From a virus (Duplodnaviria; Heunggongvirae; Uroviricota; Caudoviricetes): 55,233 bases of DNA. Shown piece after piece: positions 2,071-46,518 of this stretch. The notes beneath the pieces were generated by a model. The model was not told the origin of the DNA, did not search any database, and saw only the letters and a program-made list of their open reading frames with translations. The stretch lies in the IMG/VR virus record IMGVR_UViG_2537561945_000003; one strand, 5' to 3'. A program made the translations under genes and the position numbers. Positions within the stretch are counted from its first letter, which is position 1. The number at the start of each line of letters is the position of its first letter.

Positions 2071-2304
2071 ATGAAATCAAAAGACACCCTAAAGTGGTTC
2101 CCTGCGCAGCTTCCTGAAGTAAGAATTATCCTAGGGGATGCTGTAGTGGAAGTAGCAAAACAGGGAAGACCTATCAATACCAGAACATTGCTTGATTACA
2201 TTGAAGGAAACATAAAGAAAAAATCATGGCTGGATAACAAAGAATTATTACAAACAGCGATATCAGTTCTTAAAGACAACCAAAATTTAAATGGTAAAAT
2301 GTAA
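2071..2304 (+). CDS. ydfK: Qin-type small cold-shock-associated protein YdfK
   Basis: ORF 2038..2304; internal ATG at 2071 preceded by AAGGAA; product MKSKDTLKWFPAQLPEVR... matches remembered YdfK/YnaE (77 aa). Confidence 0.8.
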   Translation: MKSKDTLKWFPAQLPEVRIILGDAVVEVAKQGRPINTRTLLDYIEGNIKKKSWLDNKELLQTAISVLKDNQNLNGKM

Positions 2305-2620
2305 TATAATAAACTTACTTTTTTATCATTTTTCCACTTTAACAACATTTTGCTCCACTTTTCCACGACCAAACAACTTGAAATCTGGTTAAAATAACAC
2401 GCAACACTATTCTTCTTCCTTGAGTCCGCCCGGAACTCGAAAAACAAACCGAGTTAAAGCCATTTTTCACAAAATCGATTTTGGGTCTCACCAAAATTAC
2501 GGGGTTGCATACGCATTCGTTTATTTTCGAACGTGTACATACAAATATGCACAAAAATAATCATAATTATTTTCTGAGATGCATTATGATATGAACACCA
2601 ATTTCGTATAGAGTCTCACT

Positions 2621-3211
2621 ATGTCTCAAATTTTTGCTTACTGTCGGATATCAACGCTGGATCAGACCACCGAAAATCAACGCCGGGAAATCGAAAGTGC
2701 AGGTTTTAAAATCAAACCTCAGCAAATAATCGAAGAACACATTAGCGGCTCAGCAGCAACCAGTGAGCGTCCTGGTTTTAACCGGTTGCTTGCTCGCCTG
2801 AAATGTGGTGATCAATTGATTGTGACAAAACTGGATCGCCTTGGTTGTAATGCAATGGATATCAGGAAAACAGTGGAACAACTGACCGAAACAGGTATCA
2901 GAGTGCATTGCTTAGCATTGGGGGGCATTGACCTGACCAGTCCAACAGGAAAAATGATGATGCAAGTAATTTCAGCAGTCGCTGAATTTGAACGAGACCT
3001 TTTACTTGAACGCACTCATTCCGGGATAGTAAGAGCCCGCGGCGCAGGGAAACGTTTTGGTCGACCACCTGTGTTAAATGAAGAACAGAAACAGGCGGTA
3101 TTCGAACGAATTAAGTCAGGTGTAAGTATAAGTGCCATTGCCCGGGAATTCAAAACCTCGCGGCAAACCATTTTAAGAGCCAAAGCAAAACTTCAGACAC
3201 CTGACATATAA
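2621..3211 (+). CDS. pin: serine DNA invertase (Pin/Gin/Hin family resolvase-invertase)
   Basis: 196-aa ORF; N-terminal catalytic motif [10 protein letters not shown]-terminal HTH; placed next to tfa/stf as in Qin/Rac. Confidence 0.9.
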
Positions 3212-3308
3212 AAAATAATCTCGGTGTGAGATGCTTTACGTCTTCCAAGCCCCCTTCCTTGCCGTAAATGGAAAGATACATCTAATTATAGAATTTATAT
3301 GTTTTACC

Positions 3309-3884
3309 CTACGGCAGTGCTGGCCATTCAATATCCTGTGCAGTTGACGTATCAACACGGTTCAGCAATACCCGATACTTTTTCCATGCTTCCAGCAACG
3401 AGATTTCTTCCTCCGTTGCAATTTCCAGATCTGCAGCATCCTGAAGCGGCGCAATATGCTCACTGGCTACCTGCATCAGGTTGTTTTTTGTTTCTTCCGC
3501 CTCCCGGATCCGGAACAGTTTTTCTGCTTCCGTATCCTTCACCCAGGCTGTGCCGTTCCACTTCTGAAACTCCCCTTCCGGCGATAACCAGGTAACATTT
3601 TCCGGTAACGGACCGAGTTCAGAAATAAATAACGCGTCGCCGGAAGCCACGTCATAAACCGTTTTACCCCGATGATCTTCAACGAGATGCCACGATGACT
3701 CATCACTGTTGAAAACAGCCACGAAGCCAGCCGGAATATCTGGCGGTGCAATATCGGTACTGTTTGCTGGCAGACCTGTATGAGGCGGAATATATGCATC
3801 ACCTTCACCAATAAATTCATTAGTTCCGGCCAGCAGATTATAAATTTTTATGGTCCGTGGTTGTTCACTCATTCTGAATGCCAT
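3309..3884 (-). CDS. tfa: tail fiber assembly protein Tfa
   Basis: 191-aa ORF directly downstream of stf with ATGA start/stop overlap; lambda Tfa-like sequence. Confidence 0.85.
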
Positions 3885-6800
3885 TATGCAAGCCTCACAA
3901 TATAGTTAAATGCGATGTTTTTGACGGTGTTTTCCGCGTTACCAGCAGCGTTAACGGTGATGGTGTGTCCATGTGAACCAATCGCAACGGAGTGCGTATG
4001 AGCACCAATACCGACAGTATGTGCATGTGCGCCTGCGCTTGCAGCAGTGCCGGACAGCGAGTGGGTATGAGCACCATCTGATGATGTCTTCCCTGCATTA
4101 CGAGTCTGGCCACTACCGCTTGTTGTGCTCATAATCCCCGCGCTTAGATTTGAAATCGCGGTATAACCATTAGGGAAAATGCTCGTGTTCGTGCCACCAA
4201 ATGCACCGGAACTCTTGTGTTGGTGCGCACCGGCACTATTTGCGGTCCCGCTAATACTATGGGTATGCGCCCCGGTGTTATTCGTGGATTTGGTTCCGTA
4301 ATCAAACGACGATGTGGTTTTCGTCCCCAAATCCGTACTGGATGCGCTGGCGCTGTGGGTGTGCGATTTAATGCCGTCCTGTTCCTGAGATAATACGGCC
4401 CGACCACTGGCGGGCTTGCCCTTAATCGTCCAGCCACGCATATCAGGGATCACGCCTGACGGATAAGCAACTGCAAGTTTCGGGTATGCAGATTTGTCAA
4501 AAGTCTGCCCCTGCATCAGGGCATAACCAGACGGAACGGTATCTGATGGCCACGGGATTGGTGCACCGACTGGATAAAACTCTGCAGGAGGATGAGCCGA
4601 GGTGTAAAGCTGCGCCCACGGCGACCAGTTTGCGTCGGTCGTATCCCGTCGTGAACGAATAAATGCCGGAGCATGAGCACCGCTTGTACCACTCCAGCCG
4701 ATGAGTAACTCACCTTCGCCAACGGCTGTCATCCCTTTCAGGTGAATGATATTTCCATACGCTGTTGGATATCCGTTGTTATACACCTCGTATAACTCAA
4801 GACCTGCTGCCCCCTGCGTATTGTCTGTCAGCGCGGTTACCCGACCTTTTGAAGCCAGATTAACTGATGATACTGCTGTTCCACCTGACGGTAACGCCCC
4901 GATCTCTGATGCCGTTGGCTTATTTCTGGAGTTATAGTCCCTTCGCCAGCCAGGTGAATAATCTGTTCCGTGATTAATATAGGTAAACTGGGCGTTAGTT
5001 GTTCCACCACCAGTGGAGGTGGTCGGTGTGGTAATGCGGATCGTCATCGCTGACTTTATCCCCATTACTTCAATGACAGCTCCGGCGAGATGAATATTAC
5101 CGCAGTCAGTATCAGTAATGATTTTATTATTGCCATAAGACCAGGAACCCTTGCACATCCAGTATGGATGGTTAAATGCTCCCTGAGAATCCAGCCACTC
5201 GATAAACTGTGCAGTCGTCCAGTTTCCTGTTGTTGTGCTTACTGACCCACCGAAGGCACGGCAGGCACCAATATTTTTCGTAAAGGTATCTTTGCCAGGG
5301 ATATCCGCACCGTTCTGATCTTTCTGCAGACGTTTCTCAGCATTGTCATTGGCTGCTTTTACTGCCTTTGGTGTCGCGGCAAGCGTTTCAGACGTGCTGT
5401 TGGTCGCGCTGCTTAGCTGGATTATCCCTTTCTGTGCTGTCGTTGCATCCTGTGCGGTGTATTTCCCGTTAGCCAGGTCATACGCGGCCTTAACGGCTTT
5501 TGGTGTTGCCGCCAGTGACTCGGAAGTGCTGTTAGTCGCACTACTGAGCTGTACTATCCCCTTTTTCGTCGTGCTCGCATCCTCAAGCGCCACGGCGGAT
5601 GCAATATCCTCTGCCCGTTTTGCTGCTGTCTCGGCGCGCGTTGCTGCGGATTCTGCCGTACTTTTGCTCTGAGCTGCCGCCGTCGCACTGCCAGCAGCCT
5701 CTGTCGCCTTCGTGGATGCCGTCGTGGCGCTGCTCTTCGCTGCTGACGCTTGTCTGGTCGCCTCATCTTTTGAAGCAGACGCCGATGATGCCGATGACGC
5801 CGCCGAACTGGCTGACGATGCGGCAGCCGTTTTTGAGGATTCTGCGCTGGTTTCCGACGCTTTCGCGTTCGTTTCGGATGTCTTCGCTGCGGAAGCAGAC
5901 CTCGCTGCTGCGCTGGCCTGTTCAGTGGCTTCGCCAGCCTTCGTTGTGGCTGTTGAAGCAGACGATGCGGCGCTTTCTGCCGATTTTCCGGCGGCGGTGG
6001 CACTGGCTGAGGCCTGCCCGGCACTTGTTGACGCTGCACTGGCAGACGACGCAGCCGCTGTTTTTGAGCCTGCCGCAGCCGAGGCGCTCTGTCCCGCTGC
6101 CGTTTCAGAAGACCTGGCGTTCGTCTCTGACGTTTTTGCCGCCTTCGCGGAATTTCCTGCCGCTGTTGCCGAGGAAGCTGCGCTACTGGCGCTCGAGGAT
6201 GCGTTCGTTTCTGATGATTTTGCCGCCTCTTTTGAAGCCGACGCATCCCGGGCTGAGGTGGCAGCTTCTGACGCTTTCGTGGTCGCGGTGGATGCAGAAG
6301 TGGCTGCTGATTGTTGTGACGCTGCAGCATTCGTTTCTGACGTTTTCGCGGCACTGGCACTGGTAGCTGCCGCGCTTTTTGAGGACTCTGCAGCGGCAGC
6401 ACTTTTTGATGCTTCAGTGGCCTTTGTTGATGCCGTTCCTGCGCTGGAAGACGCTGACTGAGCCGACGAAGCGGCCTGTCCGGCTGACGTGCTGGCTGCG
6501 CGTGCTGAGCCTGCAGCATCAGTCGCATGGGTTGCCGCCTCACGGGCAGATGTGCCGGCATCGCCGGCTGACTTCTTCGCGGCTGCCGTGTTCTGTGCCA
6601 CCGCGGACGCGTTACGCGCCACCTCTTCCACCATCAGTTCAAAACGGCGCAGAGCCTCCGGACGGGCATCATCCTCCGTCATGGCACCGAGAAAATCATT
6701 CAGCGTACCGGGTCGGGAATCTTCATACACGGTGATGGTCCCGGCATGTGACGGCGGGAATCCTTCCACCAACAGAATAACGCTGTACTGACCGTACTCA

Positions 6801-7691: not shown

Positions 7692-10600
7692 TCAACGAAT
7701 ACTGATGCCGGAAGCGGCTTTTTTGGTCACAATCACCGTACAGTCGGTGATATTGCCTGCCCCCTGATTGCCTTTCTGGAAAATCTTAAACTCCAGAGTG
7801 ACGCTACCACCACCACTAGGCATATCAATAACTGCACTGTAACTACCGGGAATGGCCCCTTTAGTTTCTCTGGATGCGATTAATACGCCGTTTTTGCGAA
7901 CTTCAAAACCATAACCCGTGTATCGCGTGCCTCCTGGGTTATTTCCGCTCCCCGGATCGTCATACGCTATACCGTTAAAAATAATGGGCGGAATAATAAT
8001 CTGGCGGTCAAAGTTATGATCATCGCTGATGGTGACTGTAACCGTACCGTTTGGTGTTTCCGTGTTACCCCACGTACCGACTTTTTTCGGGAAGGCTTTT
8101 GATACAGCTTTAACGAAATCCCCTCTGACCTGGGTCGCCTCCAGCATGCCCTTAATCGTACAGTTCTGGTTAATCGTGACATTGTTGAGCGTTCCTGAGT
8201 TCGCATTCACACTACCACTGATATCCGCATTTTTAGCGGTCAGCTTTCCGTCTGATGTCAGGGAAAATACCGGAGGACTGCCACCGCTGGTAATGGTGGG
8301 GGCCGTCAGGCGTTTCAGGAACACTTCATTCATGAATATCTGATCGCCCTGACCAACAAACATCGGCTTTGTGTTGCCATTCGCAGGATTAATCATCGCA
8401 ATCCTGTCTGCTGCCAGCAGCACCTGACTCTGCATGCCGTCAGGGGTGTTCTCAATACCGGCACCGATACCCGCAATATAAAGGCGTCCGTCCTGCATCT
8501 GCTGCAGCTTCACTGCCCACATGCTGTTCAGGTTATTATTTGTATCAACCTGAACCTTCTGTATCTGCTGGATTGCCGCACTCTGGTCTTCCAGTTTCTT
8601 ATTGACGGTCTGTGTTATTTCATTGCTGACATCCGTTATGGACGTCCTGATTTCAGTCAGGTCAGGCGCAAGCTGACCGTTATCAATCTGCGTCCACAGC
8701 TCCTGAGCCAGATGGGTTTTCCCTATCTCGCCTTTGAAAAAATCCAGATAGCCTGATGCATCATCACTCGGCTGACCGACAGCCTCCACGAATGCCGATT
8801 TGCCAACGGTGTTCACACTGCGAACGTAAAAATAATAATCATGGCCCGGTTTGATATTGATACTGGCGGCTATCCAGTACAGTGCCGTACCAAGATAACG
8901 CGCGCTGGTTTCAACCTGCCTGATATCCGCAATCCGTTTTTCCGAGAACCAGAACTCAAACTGTACCGTCGGGTCATAAACCGCAAGATGCGGCGTGGCG
9001 GTTATCTGAAAATAGCCCGGCGTCAGCTCAATCCGCGACGGCGCTGCCGGTGCGGCAATCCGGAACGATACCGACGCCGGATCGCCCTGCTGCCCCCACG
9101 CATTTACTGCCCGGACTGTCAGCCTGTAGTTCCCCAGAGCCAGTTGTGTGAAGCGGTAAGTGGTTTCCGTCGTCCGGGCCGTGCTGACCAGCCGCTCACG
9201 GCCGTCATCCGCTGCCACGGTCAGGCGAAGCAGGAAGCTCACGCCCTTCACCACCTTCGGCGTGTCCCAGCGCGCCAGCACCTGGTATTCCCCGCTGTCT
9301 GCGGTGACTTCTGCGGTCAGGTGCTGCACCGCTGGCGGCGTGACACCATTTACCGTGCCGCTCTGGTCGCCGTCAAAGTGCGCCCCGTTATCCACGATGG
9401 CCTCTTTTTCCGGTACATGCTGCACGGCGGTGATGGCATACGTGCCGTCGTCGTTCTCACGGATACTCACGCAGCGGAACAGGCGCTGGCGCAACGTCGA
9501 CAGCTTCAGCCCCCATACGCTGTATTCAGCAACGCCGTCAGGAACACGGCTCACTTTCACCTTCACGCCGTCGGTGACGGACTGAACCTCCACGCTGACC
9601 GGACTCCCCTGCCCGTCAACCAGGCTTATCAGCGTGGTGCCGGAAGATGGCAGCGTGATTTCACGGTCGAGCGTCAGCGTCCGGGTCTGGCTGTTTACCG
9701 CCAGCACGCGCCCGCCGGTGCGGATACCGGCATAGTCATCATCGCAGATTTCAATGACATCGCCCGGTACATGGCGAAGCCCTTCGGCACCCACGCTGAA
9801 GTCCACGGTCTGCGTTTCCAGCAGTTCTGTTTTAATCAGCCACAGCCCGGCGCGGTGTGCCTGCCCCCGGCTGGTACAGCCAAAAGCATCCATCTTCGTG
9901 ACGTTACGACCGTAACGGGCAATGGCCTGCGTGTCCTCCACAAGCTCTGTCGCCGTCTCCCAGCCGTTATTCGGGTCAATCCAGTTCACCTCAACGGCAT
10001 TATGGCGGTCCTTCAGGGCGCTGAAGCTGTAGCGGAACGGCGCACCATCATCCGGCATCACCACATTACTGCGGTTATAGGTCCACACCTTATCCGACGG
10101 TCGGTCCTGCACGAACGTCAGCGTCTGCCCGTTCCATACCGGCATACAGCGCATCGCAGAGCAGAAATCACTGAGCACATCCCACGCCTTGCGCTGTGTG
10201 GTCAGGTACGCATTACAGGTGATGCGCGGCTCTGTGCCGCCAAAACCGTCCGGCACCGACTGATCGCAATGCTGGCCGATGACATACAGCGCCCATTTGT
10301 CCACATCCGCCGCACCAAGACGTTTCCCCATGCCGTAGCGCGGATGGGTCAGCATATCCCACAGACACCAGGCCATGTTGTTGCTGTATGCTGGCTTAAA
10401 CGTTCCGTCCCAGATACCGCTGTATTGCCGCGTCTGCGGGTTATAGTTCGACGGCACCTGCAGAATGCGCCCGCGCAGATGATAATTACGGCTCACCTGC
10501 TGGCTGCCGAACTGCTCCGAATCCACCTGCACGCCGACCAGTGCCGTGTTCGGGTAGCACTGTTTCACATCGATGATTTCGGTGTATGACGACCAGAGCG

Positions 10601-11189
10601 TTTTGTTCTGCAGCTGGTCTGTGGTGCTGTCCGGCGTCATCCTGCGCATCCGTATATTGAACGGGCGCGGCGGCAGGTTACCCACCACCACCGAGGCCAG
10701 ATACTGCGAGGTGGTTTTGCCCTTAATGGTGATGTCTTTTTCCGTCACCCAGCCACCATTACGCTGGATCTGAACCAGCAGGCGGACTTCCGACGGATTC
10801 CGGTCCCCCTTTGAGGTGGTTTCCACCAGTGCCTGCACGCCGAAGGTAAAGCGCAGACGGTCGATGTTTGCAGACGTAATGGTGCGGGTGATCGGCGTGT
10901 CATATTTCACTTCCGTACCCAGCACCGTCTCGGAGCCGGAGGATTCAAACCCCTCCGGCGGTGTCTGCTCCTGCTCACCGGCACGGAACACCACCGTGAC
11001 ACCGGAGATGTTGGTATTCCCCTCAGTGTCCAGCACCGGCGTACTGTTCAGCAGCACGCTTTTTAATCCATCCACCGGACCTTCAACCGGCCCTTCGCTG
11101 ATGGCATCGATCACACTCAGCAGCTGCGTGGACTTCAGGTTGTCCTTCGCTTCGCGCGGGGTATGCCCCTTACTGCTGCCTTTACCCAT
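7692..11189 (-). CDS. J: tail tip host-specificity protein J
   Basis: 1165-aa ORF; N-terminal about 1000 aa closely resemble remembered lambda J; fibronectin-like repeats. Confidence 0.95.
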
Positions 11190-11249
11190 TCCTCACGCTC
11201 CATAAATGACAAAACCGCCCGCAGGCGGTTTCACATAAAACATTTTGCA

Positions 11250-11921
11250 TCAGCGACCAATCACCACAACCTGACCACCGTCCCCTTCGTCTGCCGTGCT
11301 GATCTCCTGAGAAACCACGCGAGACCCCACGCGCATTTCCCCGTACAGAACAGGCAGAACATTGCCCTGGGCAACCATGTTATCCAGTGAGGAGAAATAG
11401 GTGTTCTGCTTACCGTTATCCGTTGTCTGTGTACGGGGAGTTCTGGCTTTCGGTGCCAGCATCTGCGCCACACCACCGAGCACCATACTGGCACCGAGAG
11501 AAAACAGGATGCCGGTCATACCACCGGTCCCAATGGCTGCCCCCCATGCTGCAAGGGTGGCTCCGGCGGTAAAGAATGATCCGGCAATGGCGGCAGCCCC
11601 CAGGACAATCTGGAATACGCCACCTGACTTGGCCCCGGCGACTCTGGGAACAATATGAATCACAGCGCCATCAGGCAGAGTCTCATGTAACTGCGCCGTT
11701 AACCCGGACGTGCTGACGTCCCGCCCGGCAATCCGTACCTGATACCAGCCGTCGCTCAGTTTCTGACGAAACGCCGGGAGCTGTGTGGCCAGTGCCCGGA
11801 TGGCTTCAGCCCCCGTTTTCACACGAAGGTCGATGCGGCGACCAAATCGTTGTAAATCCCCGTAAAGGCAGATGCGCGCCATGCCCGGTGACGCCAGAGG
11901 GAGTGTGTGCGTCGCTGCCAT
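11250..11921 (-). CDS. I: tail tip assembly protein I
   Basis: 223 aa, same length as lambda I; overlaps K by 103 nt as in lambda. Confidence 0.9.
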   Translation of the reverse strand: MAATHTLPLASPGMARICLYGDLQRFGRRIDLRVKTGAEAIRALATQLPAFRQKLSDGWYQVRIAGRDVSTSGLTAQLHETLPDGAVIHIVPRVAGAKSGGVFQIVLGAAAIAGSFFTAGATLAAWGAAIGTGGMTGILFSLGASMVLGGVAQMLAPKARTPRTQTTDNGKQNTYFSSLDNMVAQGNVLPVLYGEMRVGSRVVSQEISTADEGDGGQVVVIGR

Positions 11922-34789: not shown

Positions 34790-35041
34790 TTATTCTCCTG
34801 AAAAAGCAGAAAAGCCAGCTTTTATTCCGATCTCTTTCAATGCCTGTAATGAAGTGACAAACTCACCTTCGCGCAAGATAAATCCGTCCGTGACCCGAGC
34901 ATCCACAAAATTAATTAACGCAGCCCCATTCTTTCGCAAACACATAATGCGGTAATGACTAACAAGATTTCCATTTTCAACGCACACAGCATAGAGGCCA
35001 TCTTCACAAAAAATTTTACGCAGTTCTTCGATGTTCATCAT
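34790..35041 (-). CDS. rem: Rem-like small protein
   Basis: 83-aa ORF in the Qin rem position between ydfU and hokD; identity inferred from size and context. Confidence 0.55.
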   Translation of the reverse strand: MMNIEELRKIFCEDGLYAVCVENGNLVSHYRIMCLRKNGAALINFVDARVTDGFILREGEFVTSLQALKEIGIKAGFSAFSGE

Positions 35042-35257
35042 CAGAATCCTTCCGGATAATTAGCTCTCCCCTTTAAGGGACCATCCCTCTTATCCCTGCG
35101 CGCTACTTAAGTATTTTTGATTCTATTCCGGCACCGTCCAGAACTTCAAACGCGTTGAAAATAAAAACAAAAACCCGCCGAAGCGGGTTAAGTGCGGGTG
35201 CGTTGAGGATGCCTGCCACATCAGAGGTGGCGAGGGATTTCTCCCCCGCCGGGTCTC

Positions 35258-35413
35258 TTACTCCTCAGGTTCGTAAGCTGTGAAGACAGCGACCTCCGTC
35301 TGGCCGGTTCGGATTCGTACCTCGCAGAGGTCTTTCCTCGTTACCAGTGCCGTCACTATGACGGTTAAACAGATGACGATCAGGGCGATTAACATCGCCT
35401 TTTGCTGCTTCAT
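35258..35413 (-). CDS. hokD: Hok-family type I toxin HokD (RelF)
   Basis: 51-aa ORF found by hand: MKQQKAMLIALIVICLTVIVTALVTRKDLCEVRIRTGQTEVAVFTAYEPEE; terminator-like hairpin CCCGCCGAAGCGGG downstream. Confidence 0.9.
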   Translation of the reverse strand: MKQQKAMLIALIVICLTVIVTALVTRKDLCEVRIRTGQTEVAVFTAYEPEE

Positions 35414-35484
35414 AGCCTGCTTCTCCTGTCAACGCAAAGCAGAAGTGTCACCTTCGGTGCGAAACAGAGATGTCATGCTTTGGT

Positions 35485-35590
35485 TCAGAGAATGCGTTTG
35501 ACCGCCTCGCTATATACTTCCGAGCGTTCTCTTTTCCCAACAGAAATCACGAAAACGACAACTTTCTCGTCTATAACCTGGTATACAAGG
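35485..35590 (-). pseudogene. relE: relE toxin, C-terminal fragment (gene split by IS629)
   Basis: encodes (L)VYQVIDEKVVVFVISVGKRERSEVYSEAVKRIL, the RelE C-terminus, fused in-frame to IS-derived codons. Confidence 0.9.
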
Positions 35591-35632
35591 TGAACCGCCC
35601 CGGGTTTCCTGGAGAGTGTTTTATCTGTGAAC

Positions 35633-36523
35633 TCAGGCTGCCAGATCATTGTTTCCGATGGAAGCATAATAAGCTTTTTCTGCTTCTGCCGGAGGAGTAT
35701 GGCCCAGCCTTCCCAGCAATCGTCGATTGTTATACCAGTCCACCCACGTTAGTGTGGCCAGTTCCACTTCTGCACGGTTTTTCCAGCTCTTACGGTGTAT
35801 TACCTCCGCTTTGTAAAGACCATTGATGCTCTCAGCCATCGCGTTGTCATACGAGTCGCCTGTACTCCCTGTTGATGCCAGTAATCCGGCTTCTTTTAGT
35901 CGCTCCGTATAGGCCAGTGACACATACTGAGAGCCTTTATCGCTGTGATGGATGGTGCCAGACGGACGACGGGCCCACAACGCCTGCTCCAGCGCATCCA
36001 GCACGAATGTCGTTTCCATAGACGATGAGACCCGCCACCCCACGATGTATCCGGCAAACACATCAATGATGAACGCCACATAGACGAAGCCCCGCCATGT
36101 GCTGACGTAAGTAAAATCAGCCACCCACAGCTGGTCAGGTCGTTCTGCCACGAACTGACGGTTTACGCGGTCGCCTGCGGCAACGGCTTTCCGGCTGATG
36201 GTCGTACGGACCTTTTTACCCCGGAGAACACCGGCAAGTCCCATAACCGCCATGAGGCGCGCCACTGTACATCTGGCCACCCTGATTCCTTCCCGTAACA
36301 ACTGACGCCAGACTTTACGCACACCGTACACCTGATGATTTTCATCGTATACGCGCTGTATCTCTCTCTTCAGCCAGTCATCGTGCTGCGCACGGGCACT
36401 GCGTTTATCCGGATGATGTCGCTGTTGCTGACAATGGTAATACGTTGACGGGGCAATATGCAGTTCGCTGCATACCGGTCCGACCCCGTACTGCTCACGC
36501 AGCTTATCCAGCAGTGGCATCAT
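35633..36523 (-). CDS. IS629 transposase OrfB (DDE integrase core)
   Basis: 296-aa ORF with DDE/rve domain, made as OrfAB fusion by -1 frameshift in IS3 family. Confidence 0.9.
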
Positions 36524-36846
36524 TTTTTCCAGAGGCGGTCGAACTCCGCCTTCGCAAAATAAGCGGAAGCCTGGCGAAGGATATCGTTACTGCGGCGCAG
36601 TTCACGATTTTCACGTTCCAGCTCTTTCAGACGCTGACGTTCAGCGCTGGTGAGCCCACCATCACCGCCCCCGGTATCCCGCTCATGCTGGCGAACCCAG
36701 ACACGCAGAGTCTCCGGCGTACAGCCAATCTTTGGGGCAATGGAACAAATTGCCGCCCACTGTGAGTCATATTCATCCTGACTTTCCAGAACCATACGAA
36801 TCGCCCGCTGACGGACTTCGGGGGAAAAACGAGTATTTTTAGTCAT
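36520..36846 (-). CDS. IS629 transposase OrfA (HTH, leucine zipper)
   Basis: 108 aa [41 protein letters not shown]; ends LWKK with A-run at the frameshift window. Confidence 0.9.
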
Positions 36847-36900
36847 CCTGTTTACCTCTTTCTCAGGGAGTTTAGTCTCCAGGATTTCCGGGGCGGTTCA

Positions 36901-37085
36901 AGGCGATAGCCTGAAGACCGGAGCTTAATCTTGTAACAATCAGGCATACCACGGAGCTTGTTTGCTTCAATCCGGGGTGACTCAAGTACTTCAACCAGCT
37001 TCTTTTTCAACTGTTCACGTACCGTCGAGCCCAGCTTTCGCCATTCCTTTAGTGCCCGCTCGTCAAAATCCAGAAAATACGCCAT
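36901..37085 (-). pseudogene. relE: relE toxin, N-terminal fragment (gene split by IS629)
   Basis: MAYFLDFDERALKEWRKLGSTVREQLKKKLVEVLESPRIEANKLRGMPDCYKIKLRSSGYRL, then reads into the IS. Confidence 0.9.
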
Positions 37086-37324
37086 CAGAGTTCATCCAGC
37101 GTCACACGTACTGGCTTAGGATTACGAAGCCGTTCTTTCACTATCTCCACAAGTTCAGCATCTTCATCACTCAGGAGTGTCTGTTTGAACGGCAAGCGTT
37201 CATTGTCAGCGATATACTCGAGCATGAGACGAAGCGCTTCAGAAGGAGTTACACCCATTTTTTCAAGCGCGGCGTAAGAACGCGCTTTAAGTTCATCGTC
37301 AATACGCAGGTTAATGCTACCCAT
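37085..37324 (-). CDS. relB: RelB antitoxin (intact)
   Basis: 79 aa MGSINLRIDDELKARSYAALEKMGVTPSEALRLMLEYIADNERLPF... Confidence 0.9.
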   Translation of the reverse strand: MGSINLRIDDELKARSYAALEKMGVTPSEALRLMLEYIADNERLPFKQTLLSDEDAELVEIVKERLRNPKPVRVTLDEL

Positions 37325-37348
37325 GTCTTACACCTCTTGTAATTACAA

Positions 37349-37654
37349 ATGTCATTACAAGTATCGCACTACAACATGCTTAGGGCAAGTCACGAAGGAA
37401 GTCAGAAAGTAGTCGTAAGAACGGTGATCACTGTCCGCTTTGTGCCAGGAGCAGCCATTGCTAAGTCCATCCTGTATTGTGCAGGTCAGCTCGTTTTTAA
37501 AGAGTCCGGCCATCATCTTACTGGTACAGACACCATATACTTTGTGACGGTCAGGCTACATATGCACAACTCAACTTATTCATCTATTTTTTGCTTTAGC
37601 ATGTCAGTGTTGCTTTCTCGTCGGCGGGTGAGCGGTGACCTGACCTGTCGATAA
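37349..37654 (+). CDS. hypothetical protein, possibly YdfV-like
   Basis: 101-aa ORF at the Qin ydfV position and size; sequence not recognised. Confidence 0.3.
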   Translation: MSLQVSHYNMLRASHEGSQKVVVRTVITVRFVPGAAIAKSILYCAGQLVFKESGHHLTGTDTIYFVTVRLHMHNSTYSSIFCFSMSVLLSRRRVSGDLTCR

Positions 37655-37889
37655 AGGAACGTAACACGTTTTATGCAACACCCGCATGCGGCAGAAAATT
37701 ATTGCCGAACGTTTACCCCTGTCAACAAGCTTTACTTTCTGAGGCGCGCCAGCCCGCGAGGAAAACAATCTGAACATCAAACAATTAATGACACAAGAAA
37801 TACGATTAAAGATTTTTTGTAAGCGTACAGCCTGAACCGTCTGGTCAGAATCTGACGAATTAGACAAAGTGGTGTCCACCAAATAAGTA

Positions 37890-38291
37890 GTGGGAACCAA
37901 AGTATCAGATATGCAGAAAAATGTGACTCCCGGCAGGCGAAAAGGCTGCCCTAATTATCCTCCCGAATTTAAACAGCAGCTCGTTGCTGCCTCCTGTGAA
38001 CCCGGGATATCCATCTCAAAACTTGCTCTTGAAAATGGCATTAACGCCAATCTGTTGTTCAAATGGCGACAACAATGGCGCGAGGGAAAACTGCTATTAC
38101 CTTCTTCAGAGAGCCCCCAGCTACTTCCTGTGACTCTCGATGCAGCTGCCGAACAGCCAGAATCGCTCGCAGAGGACCCGGAAACCCTCAGTATCAGCTG
38201 TGAGGTAACGTTCCGGCACGGGACGCTCCGCTTCAATGGCAATGTCAGCGAAAAGCTCCTGACTCTGCTGATACAGGAACTGAAGCGATGA
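37890..38291 (+). CDS. IS66-family accessory protein OrfA (TnpA)
   Basis: 133-aa ORF, first of the IS66 triplet. Confidence 0.85.
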   Translation: MGTKVSDMQKNVTPGRRKGCPNYPPEFKQQLVAASCEPGISISKLALENGINANLLFKWRQQWREGKLLLPSSESPQLLPVTLDAAAEQPESLAEDPETLSISCEVTFRHGTLRFNGNVSEKLLTLLIQELKR

Positions 38292-38635
38292 TCCCGTTAC
38301 CTTCCGGGACCAAAATTTGGCTGGTTGCCGGTATCACCGATATGAGAAATGGCTTCAACGGCCTGGCTGCGAAAGTACAAACGGCGCTGAAAGACGATCC
38401 CATGTCCGGCCATGTTTTCATTTTCCGGGGCCGCAGCGGCAGTCAGGTTAAACTGCTGTGGTCCACCGGTGACGGACTGTGCCTCCTGACCAAACGGCTG
38501 GAGCGTGGGCGCTTCGCCTGGCCGTCAGCCCGTGATGGCAAAGTGTTCCTTACGCAGGCGCAGCTGGCGATGCTGCTGGAAGGTATCGACTGGCGACAGC
38601 CTAAGCGGCTGCTGCCCTCCCTGACCATGCTGTAA
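38288..38635 (+). CDS. IS66-family accessory protein OrfB (TnpB)
   Basis: 115 aa [26 protein letters not shown]... Confidence 0.9.
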
Positions 38636-38684
38636 ATCTCTTTATCCTGGTTGTCACAGAATAAGCCCGGTAAAATACGGGCTT

Positions 38685-40223
38685 ATGAACGACATCTCTT
38701 CTGACGACATCTTCCTGCTGAAACAGCGCCTGGCCGAACAGGAAGCGCTGATCCACGCCCTGCAGGAAAAGCTGAGCAACCGGGAGCGCGAAATAGACCA
38801 TCTGCAGGCGCAGTTGGATAAACTCCGCCGGATGAACTTCGGCAGTCGTTCCGAAAAAGTCTCCCGCCGTATCGCACAAATGGAAGCCGATCTGAACCGG
38901 CTTCAGAAAGAGAGCGATACGCTGACTGGTAGGGTGTATGACCCGGCAGTACAGCGTCCGTTGCGTCAGACCCGCACCCGTAAGCCGTTCCCTGAATCAC
39001 TACCCCGTGACGAAAAGCGACTGTTGCCTGCGGCGCCGTGCTGCCCGAACTGCGGCGGTTCACTGAGCTATCTGGGCGAGGATACCGCCGAACAGCTGGA
39101 GTTGATGCGTAGCGCCTTCCGGGTTATCCGGACGGTACGGGAAAAACATGCCTGTACTCAGTGCGATGCCATCGTGCAGGCACCTGCACCTTCGCGGCCC
39201 ATCGAGCGGGGTATCGCCGGACCGGGGCTGCTGGCCCGCGTGCTGACCTCGAAGTATGCAGAGCACACCCCGCTGTATCGCCAGTCAGAAATATACGGCC
39301 GGCAAGGTGTGGAGCTGAGGCGTTCACTGCTGTCGGGCTGGGTGGATGCATGCTGCCGGCTGCTGTCTCCGCTGGAAGAGGCGCTTCATGGCTATGTCAT
39401 GACTGACGGCAAACTCCATGCCGATGATACCCCGGTCCAGGTACTGCTGCCGGGTAATAAGAAGACGAAGACCGGGCGGTTGTGGGCGTATGTTCGTGAT
39501 GACCGCAATGCCGGGTCAGCGTTGGCACCTGCAGTGTGGTTCGCTTACAGCCCGGACAGAAAAGGCATCCATCCGCAGACTCATCTTGCCTGCTTCAGCG
39601 GTGTGCTGCAAGCGGATGCGTACGCCGGGTTCAACGAGCTTTATCGCAATGGTGGGATAACGGAAGCTGCCTGCTGGGCTCATGCCCGCCGAAAGATCCA
39701 CGATGTGCACGTCCGCATCCCGTCAGCACTGACGGAAGAAGCCCTGGAGCAGATCGGTCAGTTGTACGCCATAGAGGCGGATATAAGGGGAATGCCGGCA
39801 GAGCAGCGGCTTGCTGAACGTCAGCGAAAAACGAAACCGTTGTTGAAATCCCTGGAAAGCTGGTTGCGTGAAAAGATGAAGACCCTGTCGCGACACTCAG
39901 AGTTGGCGAAGGCGTTCGCGTACGCACTTAACCAGTGGCCGGCACTGACGTACTATGCGAACGATGGCTGGGTGGAAATCGACAACAACATCGCTGAAAA
40001 TGCCCTGCGGGCGGTCAGTCTGGGTCGTAAAAACTTCCTGTTCTTCGGCTCTGACCATGGTGGTGAGCGGGGAGCGCTACTGTACAGCCTGATCGGGACG
40101 TGCAAACTGAATGACGTGGATCCAGAAAGCTACCTTCGCCATGTGCTTGGCGTCATAGCAGACTGGCCGGTCAACCGGGTCAGCGAACTGCTTCCGTGGC
40201 GCATAGCACTGCCAGCTGAATAA
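38685..40223 (+). CDS. IS66-family transposase OrfC
   Basis: 512 aa with CxxC zinc-ribbon and DDE region. Confidence 0.9.
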
Positions 40224-40306
40224 CACATCCCCGTCAATACGGCCCTCGCTGTACGCTTACGATTTTTTTGTGCATGCCGATAGTGCTTTTTTAAAAGGAG
40301 AAATCT

Positions 40307-42903: not shown

Positions 42904-43666
42904 TATTCCTCCTACAATCAATGTGCAATTACATTTAAACACACCTCAATTTGGCCGGACATATAAATATCTAAACCAGAAAAAATCACTTACATAGCGT
43001 TACAAACTCTTTAGTCTAAAGGTTCATCGTAAAACATTCCCCATACTTATCAGTCCGTTCCGCGCCAGGTAGCTCATTGCCTTATCTGGCAACCTGTAAT
43101 CAGGTTTCCGCTTTTTCAGTTGGCTGGTCGTTTAACCGACATAGTTAATCCATTAATCTAGTTGCCGGATGTTGGTGGATTTTCGCGTTTTAGTTGTTCA
43201 TAAAAGTGCACAGCTTTAACCAGTTCTTCTGATGTAACTGGGACTGGTGAGGCAGTGAATAAGGCCTGAATTTGATAGTTCGGCCTGTCGTTACAATCCT
43301 CTTTTTTCGGTACATATTTCCAGTCACCAGACCACTACTTCCCCTGAAAGTCCGTAACGCCTTTTTTCACGTAGCGATATCGCCATGCCACTGGTTTTGC
43401 TTGCCCCGCCGTTTCATGCCCTTCCTGATAATTAATCTCGCTCATTCATCGCCCCACTCATCACAATATGCTTCGACCGGAGTTTTTCCCGCTTCATAGT
43501 CATCACGCTAGGATTCGACATCAGCAGCACTTCCACCGCGTAACTCACCATAGTCCATTAATAGTTCATCCCGCTCTTCAAAACTGTAAGCGTCGTCTCA
43601 GCACCGTCTGGCAGATCCTGAAATTCCTGAGAGAATAGTGGACACCAAATATGGTGGACGCAATCC

Positions 43667-44071
43667 ATGAAATCATTAACCGCAGTGCGTAAAAAAAGCC
43701 CTAATTATCCCGTTGAGTTCAAAATCAAAATGGTTGAACTCTCGCATCGACCAGAGATCTCCGTAGCGCAACTCGCTCGTGAGCATGGGATCAACGATAA
43801 TTTGCTGTTCAAGTGGCGCCAGTACTGGCGCGAAGGAAAACTACGTCCTCCTTCAACAACAGAAAACAACGTGCCTGAGCTGCTCCCGATAACACTTGAT
43901 GCCGAAGATGTTGTCCCTACAACCTCCCCCCGGTCACAACCTGTAGCTGCTGCGACACCTGAATCACTCAATATCAGCTGTGAAGTGACGTTCCGGCACG
44001 GATCACTCCGTCTGAATGGTGCCATCAGCGAAAATATCCTGAACCTGCTGATACGGGAGCTCAAACGTTGA
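43667..44071 (+). CDS. IS66-family OrfA
   Basis: 134-aa ORF. Confidence 0.85.
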   Translation: MKSLTAVRKKSPNYPVEFKIKMVELSHRPEISVAQLAREHGINDNLLFKWRQYWREGKLRPPSTTENNVPELLPITLDAEDVVPTTSPRSQPVAAATPESLNISCEVTFRHGSLRLNGAISENILNLLIRELKR

Positions 44072-44415
44072 TCCCATTACCATCAGGGACAAAGATCTGG
44101 CTGGTCGCTGGCATCACCGATATGAGAAACGGCTTCAACGGCCTGGCGGCAAAGGTGCAGACGACGCTGAAAGACGATCCGATGTCAGGTCACGTTTTTA
44201 TCTTCCGTGGGCGTAATGGCAGTCAGGTAAAGCTCCTCTGGTCTACCGGCGATGGACTGTGTCTGCTGACCAAACGGCTGGAGCGCGGCCGCTTCGCCTG
44301 GCCGTCAGCCCGGGATGGCAAAGTGTTCCTCACACCGGCACAGCTGGCGATGCTGCTGGAAGGTATCGACTGGCGGCAGCCTAAAAGACTGCTTACGTCC
44401 CTGACTATGTTGTAA
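44068..44415 (+). CDS. IS66-family OrfB
   Basis: 115-aa ORF. Confidence 0.9.
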   Translation: MIPLPSGTKIWLVAGITDMRNGFNGLAAKVQTTLKDDPMSGHVFIFRGRNGSQVKLLWSTGDGLCLLTKRLERGRFAWPSARDGKVFLTPAQLAMLLEGIDWRQPKRLLTSLTML

Positions 44416-44463
44416 GCCTCTTTATCCTGGTCGACGCTGAATGAGCCTGGTAATATACCCGGT

Positions 44464-45999
44464 ATGAGCAGCTCACTTCCTGACGATATCAATGCACTGA
44501 AACGTCTCCTTGCCGAACAGGAGGCGCTGAACCGTGCCCTGCAGGAAAAGCTGAACGAGCGTGAACGCGAAATAGACCATCTGCAGGCACAGCTGGATAA
44601 GCTGCGCCGGATGAACTTCGGCAGCCGCTCGGAAAAAGTCTCCCGTCGTATCGCACAGATGGAAGCTGACCTGAAGGCACTTCAGAAAGAAAGTGATACC
44701 CTTACCGGTCGGGTTGACGACCCGGCCGTGCAGCGCCCGCTGCGTCAAACCCGCACCCGCAAACCGTTCCCCGAATCACTCCCCCGCGATGAAAAACGGC
44801 TGCTGCCGGCAGCGTCATGCTGCCCGGAATGTGGAGGCTCGCTGAGCTATCTGGGTGAGGATGCCGCCGAACAGCTGGAGCTGATGCGCAGCGCCTTCCG
44901 GGTTATCCGGACTGTACGTGAAAAGCATGCCTGTACTCAGTGCGATGCCATCGTGCAGGCCCCCGCGCCTTCACGGCCCATCGAGCGGGGTATCGCAGGA
45001 CCGGGGCTGCTGGCCCGCGTGCTGATCTCAAAGTATGCAGAGCACACCCCGCTGTACCGCCAGTCTGAAATGTACGGCCGCCAGGGCGTGGAGCTGAGTC
45101 GTTCACTGCTGTCGGGCTGGGTGGATGCATGCTGCCGGCTACTGTCACCGCTGGAAGAAGCGCTTCAGGACTATGTGCTGACTGACGGTAAGCTCCATGC
45201 TGATGACACGCCTGTCCCGGTGCTGTTGCCAGGCAATAAGAAAACGAAGACCGGGCGGTTATGGACCTACGTTCGTGACGACCGTAACGCCGGGTCAACG
45301 CTGGCGCCGGCGGTGTGGTTCGCTTACAGCCCGGACAGAAAAGGCATCCATCCGCAGACCCATCTTGCGGGGTTCAGTGGTGTACTGCAGGCGGATGCAT
45401 ACGCCGGGTTCAACGAGCTGTACCGGGATGGCCGGATAACGGAAGCCGCCTGTTGGGCTCACGCCCGCCGTAAAATCCACGATGTGCACGTTCGCACCCC
45501 GTCAGCCCTGACGGAGGAAGCGCTGAAACGGATCGGCGAACTGTACGCCATCGAGGCAGAGATAAGGGGAATGACGGCGGAGCAGCGCCTTGCCGAACGT
45601 CAGTTGAAAACGAAACCGCTGCTGAAATCCCTGGAAAGCTGGCTGCGTGAAAAGATGAAAACCCTGTCGCGACACTCAGAACTGGCGAAAGCGTTCGCAT
45701 ACGCCCTGAACCAGTGGCCGGCGCTGACGTACTATGCAGATGATGGCTGGGCTGAGGCGGACAATAACATCGCTGAAAATGCGTTGCGGATGGTCAGTCT
45801 GGGCCGCAAAAACTACCTGTTCTTCGGTTCGGATCATGGAGGAGAGCGGGGAGCGCTGCTGTACAGCCTGATCGGGACGTGCAAACTGAACGGAGTGGAG
45901 CCAGAAAGCTACCTCCGCTATGTCCTTGACGTCATAGCCGACTGGCCGATAAACCGGGTCGGCGAACTGCTCCCCCTGGCGCGTAGCACTGCCGACTGA
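44464..45999 (+). CDS. IS66-family transposase OrfC
   Basis: 511-aa ORF. Confidence 0.9.
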
Positions 46000-46518
46000 A
46001 TAACACATCCCCGTCAATACGGTTCTTGCTGCACGCTTACTCAAAACTGATGTTATATTTAGCTGAACAAAAATCAGCCACTTTGTTCTTCCTCATCGTC
46101 TTTTATTTCGTGGTATGAGTAATTGCAGTAGTTAAAGAAAATTTCTTATGCTCCGTCATGAATTTCCTCAGGTGTTGCGTCATCGTCCACTTCGAATACA
46201 TCCTCAAAATCTCCACCAGCTATTCCCGTTTCAATAATAATTTTGAACTTTCGCATTTCACTACCGCCCTTTCGGGCGGCCTCCTGATGTTCTGAGGGTG
46301 CAGAAATCCATCCGGTTAAGGATTAAATTTTATTTACAGAACTGAATTTAATTATTCAGATATACGTATCTGTAGCCTTACGAATCTACTCACTGGATGC
46401 CTCTTTCATAAAAATAATCCAGTGGGTTTTATCGTTTTTTCCCTGTTCGTTGACAGATAACAGGTTTTCTGTCTGTCAGTGCCAGAATCTGGCTTACCGG
46501 TATTTGCGTTTCATTCCA

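Follow-up and report, generated by a model that had tools for sequence, protein, structure and literature searches.

An IS629 insertion splits the toxin gene relE and leaves the antitoxin gene relB intact in a Qin-like prophage of Escherichia coli

Introduction

In Escherichia coli K-12 the antitoxin gene relB, the toxin gene relE and hokD (relF) form the relBEF operon of the Qin prophage, which is transcribed as a single message from the promoter PrelBEF (PMC3598666). RelB alone represses but binds its operator, relO, weakly, and RelE serves as a co-repressor, conferring more than 10-fold higher affinity for relO together with cooperativity, and shields RelB from Lon (PMC2812701, PMC3507626). 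The R81A variant of RelE is the standard non-toxic form (PMC2812701), and catalysis depends critically on Tyr87 (PMC3507626). The insertion sequence (IS) IS629, of which IS1203 is an isoform, produces target duplications of 3-4 bp, has no known target consensus, and in O157 has 62% of its copies within prophages (PMC3271280). Here we describe a locus at which the two systems meet. It lies in a stretch of DNA of 55,233 bp, recorded as a virus of the class Caudoviricetes (IMG/VR record IMGVR_UViG_2537561945_000003) and referred to at its full length as the window, in which a complete IS629 is found inside relE of a relB-relE-hokD operon.

The operon resembles that of the K-12 Qin prophage in its gene order (relB-relE-hokD), in its neighbours (ydfV, flxA, rem and ydfU) and in the sequence of relB, relO and the restored relE, which are identical in the two, and differs from it in the interruption of relE. 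The inserted element shares with IS629 of E. coli O157:H7 and Stx prophages its length of 1310 bp, the TG...CA termini, the 13-bp terminal repeat TGAACCGCCCCGG, the -1 frameshift between orfA and orfB, the ALIL pseudoknot, the DDE/rve domain, a duplication of 3 bp (3-4 bp in the literature, PMC3271280) and the location in a lambdoid prophage. Unlike O157 Sakai with its 23 copies of IS629 (PMC9943667), the host belongs to a non-O157, bovine-associated lineage with about 3-5 IS629-like places per chromosome. The locus can also be set beside other degenerate toxin-antitoxin loci with an orphan antitoxin, in which the toxin has been inactivated but antitoxin and operator remain whole, a pattern represented in E. 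coli by 47 genomes with full relB and no contiguous relE; the lesion described here is not a deletion or point mutation but a clean insertion, reversible in principle.

Results

Reading of positions 35000-37800, together with the listing of open reading frames (ORFs), gave the minus-strand order relB, an ORF with the start of RelE, two overlapping transposase ORFs, the last 33 codons of relE, and hokD. IS629 occupies exactly 1310 bp inside relE (35591..36900, minus strand), and its transposase genes run in the same direction as relBE. The 5' fragment of relE (36901..37085, minus strand) comprises codons 1-61 and two bases of codon 62 and is entered by the NCBI annotation pipeline PGAP as a pseudogene, 'relE ... 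missing C-terminus', while the 3' fragment (35485..35589, minus strand) consists of the duplicated Leu62, codons 63-95 and the stop codon, and contains R81 and Y87 but lacks an initiation codon. The insertion breaks codon 62 behind its second base, and the first T of the IS completes the triplet CTT, so that Leu62 is kept. A first-pass annotation, made from the sequence alone, had placed a 1310-bp interruption after codon 62; since the IS supplies the missing base of the Leu codon this is right at the protein level, and the interruption itself is confirmed, with the exact span given above.

The trinucleotide AGG stands as a direct repeat on either side of the IS, at 36901..36903 and 35588..35590, and the two flanking copies are thus identical, a point on which the first-pass annotation had made its reading depend. 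When the IS and 3 bp were removed in silico, the relE frame was restored (95 aa, 288 bp); removal of the IS alone gave an in-frame 96-aa product with a doubled Leu, and removal of the IS and 4 bp resulted in a frameshift and a 66-aa product. The target duplication is therefore 3 bp. Of the 3-4 bp (AGG/AAGG) originally proposed, the 3-bp form is thus retained, whereas the 4-bp form AAGG was rejected, because excision on that basis frameshifts relE and because its terminal A, which is part of the symmetrical IS end, is counted twice. The two halves of relE do rejoin to the full RelE sequence, as had been predicted for excision of the IS with one duplicate. The restored DNA is identical at 288/288 positions to the intact annotated relE of strain 05_3471 and 100% identical to relE of E. 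coli K-12 MG1655, the encoded protein equals RELE_ECOLI, and the restored ORF passes the family model with 54.7 bits.

The whole window is base-for-base identical to the reverse strand of positions 2350029-2405261 of the chromosome of E. coli strain F41 (NZ_CM135134.3). In the RefSeq/PGAP annotation of this chromosome relE is given as a pair of pseudogene fragments, one 'missing C-terminus' and the other 'missing N-terminus', on either side of an IS3-family transposase with a programmed frameshift, and relB and hokD are intact. The relE::IS629 event is in this sense already known, being visible in public annotation, and its anatomy departs from neither that of IS629 nor that of relBEF. A literature search on IS629 in combination with relE retrieved no paper on this allele, the matches being coincidental co-mentions.

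The termini of the element, TGAACCGCCCCGG and CCGGGGCGGTTCA, form perfect 13-bp inverted repeats with ends TG...CA, and 22 of the first 25 positions match between the left, transposase-proximal end (36876..36900, minus strand) and the right end with which it pairs (35591..35615, plus strand), in agreement with the terminal repeats claimed earlier. The terminal 13-mer occurs at those two places only in the window, compared with 0.14 occurrences expected by chance, and a second IS629 copy, sought within the 55,233 bp, was not found. The upstream transposase gene, orfA (36520..36846, minus strand), encodes a 108-aa protein with a helix-turn-helix (HTH) domain (PF01527 HTH_Tnp_1, 2.4e-12) that aligns to positions 1-86 of the model NF033516 transpos_IS3. 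The product of orfB (35633..36523, minus strand; 296 aa) carries the DDE/rve catalytic domain (NF033516, 315 bits against a cutoff of 160; PF00665 rve, 1.6e-27). An ALIL frameshift-stimulating pseudoknot with its A-run slippery site is present at 36449..36565 on the minus strand (full-length match to Rfam RF01497 with 121.5 bits, gathering score 50), and a -1 shift at the A-run GGAAAAAATGA yields an uninterrupted OrfAB of 404 aa; the PGAP record for the transposase (WP_169016933.1) likewise describes it as intact with a programmed frameshift. Over 1310/1310 bp the element is 99.5% identical to features named 'insertion sequence:IS629' (AJ304858.2) in phage records, and it matches the IS629 that encodes OrfA/OrfB in O157 Stx phages equally well (99.5% over 1310/1310 bp). 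Identity to copies that PGAP labels 'IS1203 family' in other E. coli is 99.4-99.5%, and the differences between this IS and the copies compared amount to six to seven bases. Together with the hallmarks of the IS3 family, these matches uphold the original assignment to IS629; judged by sequence the label is justified, with the element best described as an IS1203-like isoform. Since its ORFs, ends and frameshift signal are intact, the copy looks transposition-competent.

Two aberrant reading frames result from the insertion. The 5' part of relE reads through into the IS to give a 77-aa ORF (36852..37085, minus strand) composed of RelE residues 1-62 and 15 residues from the IS end, the TAA stop of which lies 5 nt upstream of the orfA ATG. 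This fusion scores 27.3 bits with the RelE/StbE model TIGR02385, under the cutoff of 27.9, and aligns to model positions 2-66; without R81 and Y87 it falls outside a RelE family defined by full length (about 95 aa) and the C-terminal catalytic residues. In NCBI nr the fusion is named 'type II toxin-antitoxin system RelE/ParE family toxin' (HDX7278878.1, HDX7299105.1), an annotation pitfall, as the label is that of a toxin though the catalytic C-terminal third is missing. The 3' fragment has a single possible start in its frame, an ATG at 35667 within the IS, which would open a 60-aa hybrid ORF (35485-35667, minus strand). Profile searches gave no family match for this ORF and no Shine-Dalgarno-like sequence precedes its ATG, and for these reasons it was treated as a chance ORF and not as a gene. 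A 66-aa form of RelE ending in ...RLVYQV is present on 31 contigs in the RelE protein cluster, where it is recorded as 'partial'; it may stem from truncation where contigs end, or from a further site, four codons downstream of the IS629 break, at which relE is repeatedly broken.

The other parts of the operon are untouched. The relB gene (37085..37324, minus strand) encodes the complete 79-aa antitoxin (NCBIfam NF008412, 133 bits against a cutoff of 96; Pfam PF04221, 1e-32, spanning RelB positions 1-79; WP_000534858.1 RelB), is identical to K-12 relB at 240/240 positions, and overlaps relE in the sequence TGATG, which holds the relB stop and the relE ATG. The relO operator, overlapping the relBEF promoter at 37337..37360 on the minus strand, is intact as well: TTGTAATGACATTTGTAATTACAA corresponds to the published half-sites TTGTAATGACAT and TTGTAATTACAA (PMC2812701), and this exact match identifies it as the cognate operator of RelB, with four hexad repeats overlapping the promoter. 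The statement that relB stays intact was hence correct and extends to the operator. Its description as an orphan antitoxin and autorepressor holds with regard to relB and relO, but 'autorepressor' needs qualifying, given that RelB alone binds relO weakly (PMC2812701, PMC3507626). The third gene, hokD (35258..35413, minus strand; PF01848, 82.9 bits against a cutoff of 22; WP_000813254.1), is also intact and encodes a peptide that fits the Hok/Gef type I toxins in length (about 50 aa) and HOK_GEF match; it is now 1.3 kb further away from the promoter.

The distribution of the allele was determined with 140-bp junction-specific queries against 5,426 complete E. coli genomes. Both junctions were recovered as single contiguous matches in exactly three of them, F41 and K99S, both from South Korea, and EC24.26, of bovine origin; a fourth genome at the coverage threshold in each junction search proved to be a joined two-piece match with an IS elsewhere in the locus. 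Across 40,034/40,034 compared positions, including the neighbouring elements ISEc8 and ISEc22, neither K99S nor EC24.26 differs from the window, and the three strains therefore represent one clone and one event. An exact-protein look-up of the 77-aa fusion added about five further contigs (GCA_031886325.1, GCA_037196945.1, GCA_002467195.1, SRR26082296), three of which are 100% identical to the window. The draft genome GCA_037196945.1 has the same upstream junction but lacks ISEc8 between ydfV and flxA and shows 6 substitutions and 1 gap in about 3.1 kb; since the junction is present where ISEc8 is missing, the ISEc8 and IS629 insertions have separable histories. Exact junction searches in JGI metagenome contigs and in IMG/VR returned no match. 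The insertion is recent, to judge by its perfect duplication and by flanks that have acquired no other changes from the K-12 sequence. These comparisons show that the allele was passed on by clonal descent within a small, bovine-associated lineage of E. coli (F41, K99S, EC24.26 and a few draft genomes), for which it is usable as a marker.

Loss of relE in the presence of relB extends beyond this clone. Counting relE as contiguous when at least 80% of its length lay in one match, we found the relE allele in 1,247 genomes of the complete-genome collection and contiguous in 1,200 of them, while relB was full length in 1,247. The difference of about 47 genomes, or 3.8% of carriers, accordingly represents those that keep relB and have a broken relE, and nothing in the counts points to the reverse. 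Inspection of two further broken relE alleles, in strain HH107 and on plasmid pPEC1003, showed deletions with relB intact; in HH107 the broken relE is fused to the downstream gene, and hokD and rem are lost. This asymmetry between relB and relE fits the usual toxin-first route of toxin-antitoxin decay, and to our knowledge toxin-first loss is the only viable decay order for such a pair. Independent IS629/IS1203 insertions were also observed elsewhere in the locus, with relE intact in each case: in strain 05_3471 about 75 bp upstream of the relB start, disrupting ydfV (2892-4200 of the extracted sequence), and in strain DXMF6-3R between relE and hokD (2269-3578 of the extract). These copies fit the reported bias of IS629 towards prophages (PMC3271280). 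On plasmids, the same relBE allele occurs at 90 places.

Discussion

Taken together, the exact boundaries, the target duplication and the restored frame make it highly probable that the locus is a simple insertional pseudogene, formed when IS629 entered the relB-relE-hokD operon of a Qin-like prophage within relE and duplicated AGG. It is a recent, lineage-restricted pseudogene of a well-known kind, that is, a textbook IS disruption involving a well-known element and a well-known operon, and no evidence contradicting the structural reading was met. Transposition of an active-looking IS629 copy, with duplication of the 3 bp, has split the toxin gene into a 5' part without the mRNA-cleavage residues R81 and Y87 and a 3' part without a start codon, and the cell would no longer make active RelE. 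With its co-repressor and protector lost, the remaining RelB is expected to bind less tightly and to be less stable, acting as a leakier and shorter-lived autorepressor with greater exposure to Lon. Transcription from PrelBEF would run into the IS in the sense direction, and expression of hokD would depend on read-through across 1.3 kb of IS. Two points weigh against this picture: binding of RelB by the 77-aa RelE'-IS fusion is conceivable in principle, and GCA_037196945.1 points to a history slightly more complex than that of one tight clone. The allele offers a clean, datable case of a toxin-antitoxin module decaying toxin-first through IS insertion, and the 47 of 1,247 relB carriers without a contiguous relE provide a small quantitative illustration of the expected asymmetry; beyond strain bookkeeping its importance is little.

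If the truncated RelE (residues 1-62 with the 15-aa tail) kept RelB binding and co-repression, autoregulation would be essentially unchanged. The fragment does align to positions 2-66 of the RelE/StbE model and keeps Glu14, a residue that touches the RelB helix when the two proteins are bound (PMC3507626), but it scores under the family cutoff (27.3 against 27.9 bits) and lacks residues 63-95, about one third of the protein, where the ordered core in the crystal comprises residues 2-80 (PMC3507626). With so much of RelE gone a stable fold is unlikely, and we regard retained co-repression as distinctly improbable. A similarly low probability attaches to the idea that the insertion is a functional rewiring, in which either the relBE promoter drives a translationally coupled transposase or the retained RelB serves for immunity, or anti-addiction, when plasmids and phages with relBE enter the cell. 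The geometry invites this idea: the IS lies in sense orientation, the TAA of the relE' fusion stands 5 nt before the orfA ATG with the GAGG of orfA inside the last codons of the fusion, and no terminator-like site separates PrelBEF from orfA, the sole minus-strand one in the IS (36133-36118, in orfB) being weak. The junction RNA has no significant structure that might hide the ribosome-binding site (z = 0.29), a folding result that in itself speaks neither for nor against occlusion, and the 90 plasmid places of the same relBE allele likewise count in favour of the idea. Yet the argument is purely positional, any insertion has one of three frames entering IS629 that ends at that stop, and the allele, young and seldom encountered, gives no indication of having spread or been selected. 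A sigma-70 consensus scan of 35150-37500 detected 0 promoter-like sites against 1.8 expected and also missed the known relBE promoter, for which reason it is silent on outward promoters of the IS. Read-through expression of the transposase is conceivable from this arrangement. The more specific version, in which sense IS629 would be the third cistron of the relB-relE' message, with the starvation-inducible, Lon- and RelB-controlled relBE promoter driving the transposase and RelB perhaps countering addiction, seems to us very unlikely; were it true, the locus would be a natural case of stress-coupled IS activity under a promoter loosened by loss of the RelE co-repressor, and the retained RelB could counter addiction by relBE-bearing plasmids.

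IS629 could have used a hot spot more than once, so that the carriers would trace back to separate insertions and loss of relE would have been repeatedly selected at this position. This would accommodate GCA_037196945.1, which shares the upstream junction without ISEc8 and with 6 substitutions and 1 gap, and IS629/IS1203 copies are indeed found upstream of relB (05_3471) and between relE and hokD (DXMF6-3R). The same nucleotide, the same orientation and the same fusion protein are, however, most simply ascribed to descent, followed by a later ISEc8 insertion or prophage recombination; moreover, the junction is present in only 3 of the 1,247 relBE-carrying complete genomes, and no target consensus is known for IS629 (PMC3271280). 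We thus consider recurrent insertion unlikely, and suggest that the allele predates the ISEc8 insertion or was moved by recombination, an independent insertion at the same base being less likely. An assembly artefact, by which the IS would have been misjoined into a relE that is in reality intact from repeat-bounded contigs, has a negligible probability. IS629 is a multi-copy repeat, with about 3-4 IS629-like places in F41, and draft assemblies do break at it (GCA_037196945.1 and another draft contig end inside the IS), but a misjoin does not produce a perfect 3-bp duplication around a complete 1310-bp element, and the same two junctions recur in three assemblies at chromosome level as well as in several draft or Logan assemblies made independently. 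Among the latter, one 3-kb contig spans relB, relE' and the whole IS to its far end, though not the downstream relE fragment.

Genomic context

Whereas Qin of K-12 is a remnant of only about 20 kb, the Qin-like lambdoid prophage in the window extends over about 53 kb and is near-complete, with genes for integrase and excisionase, dicABC, the replication gene O, the antiterminator gene Q, genes for lysis, terminase, head and tail, pinQ and numerous cold-shock paralogues (cspB, cspF, cspI and ydfK). It adjoins a 5'-truncated ydfJ. ISEc8, an IS66-family element with tnpA, tnpB and a transposase gene, lies between ydfV and flxA at about 37819-40251 of the window. A second element of this family, ISEc22, with a frameshifted transposase gene, is located at about 43600-46000 (9231-11567 of the extracted segment), and its surroundings include part of an ISNCY transposase, a ydaT-family toxin gene that is truncated and a DUF7167 gene whose frame contains a stop. 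The early region of the prophage is decaying via several independent lesions.

Downstream of hokD a terminator-like hairpin, AACCCGCTTCGGCGGGTT, is followed by a T-run (35172..35189, minus strand). A weak match to isrK, an Hfq-binding small RNA, was also recorded just 3' of hokD at 35168-35249 on the minus strand (25.1 bits, below the Rfam gathering score of 50; E = 0.019), where it overlaps the hokD stop codon and takes in the terminator hairpin.

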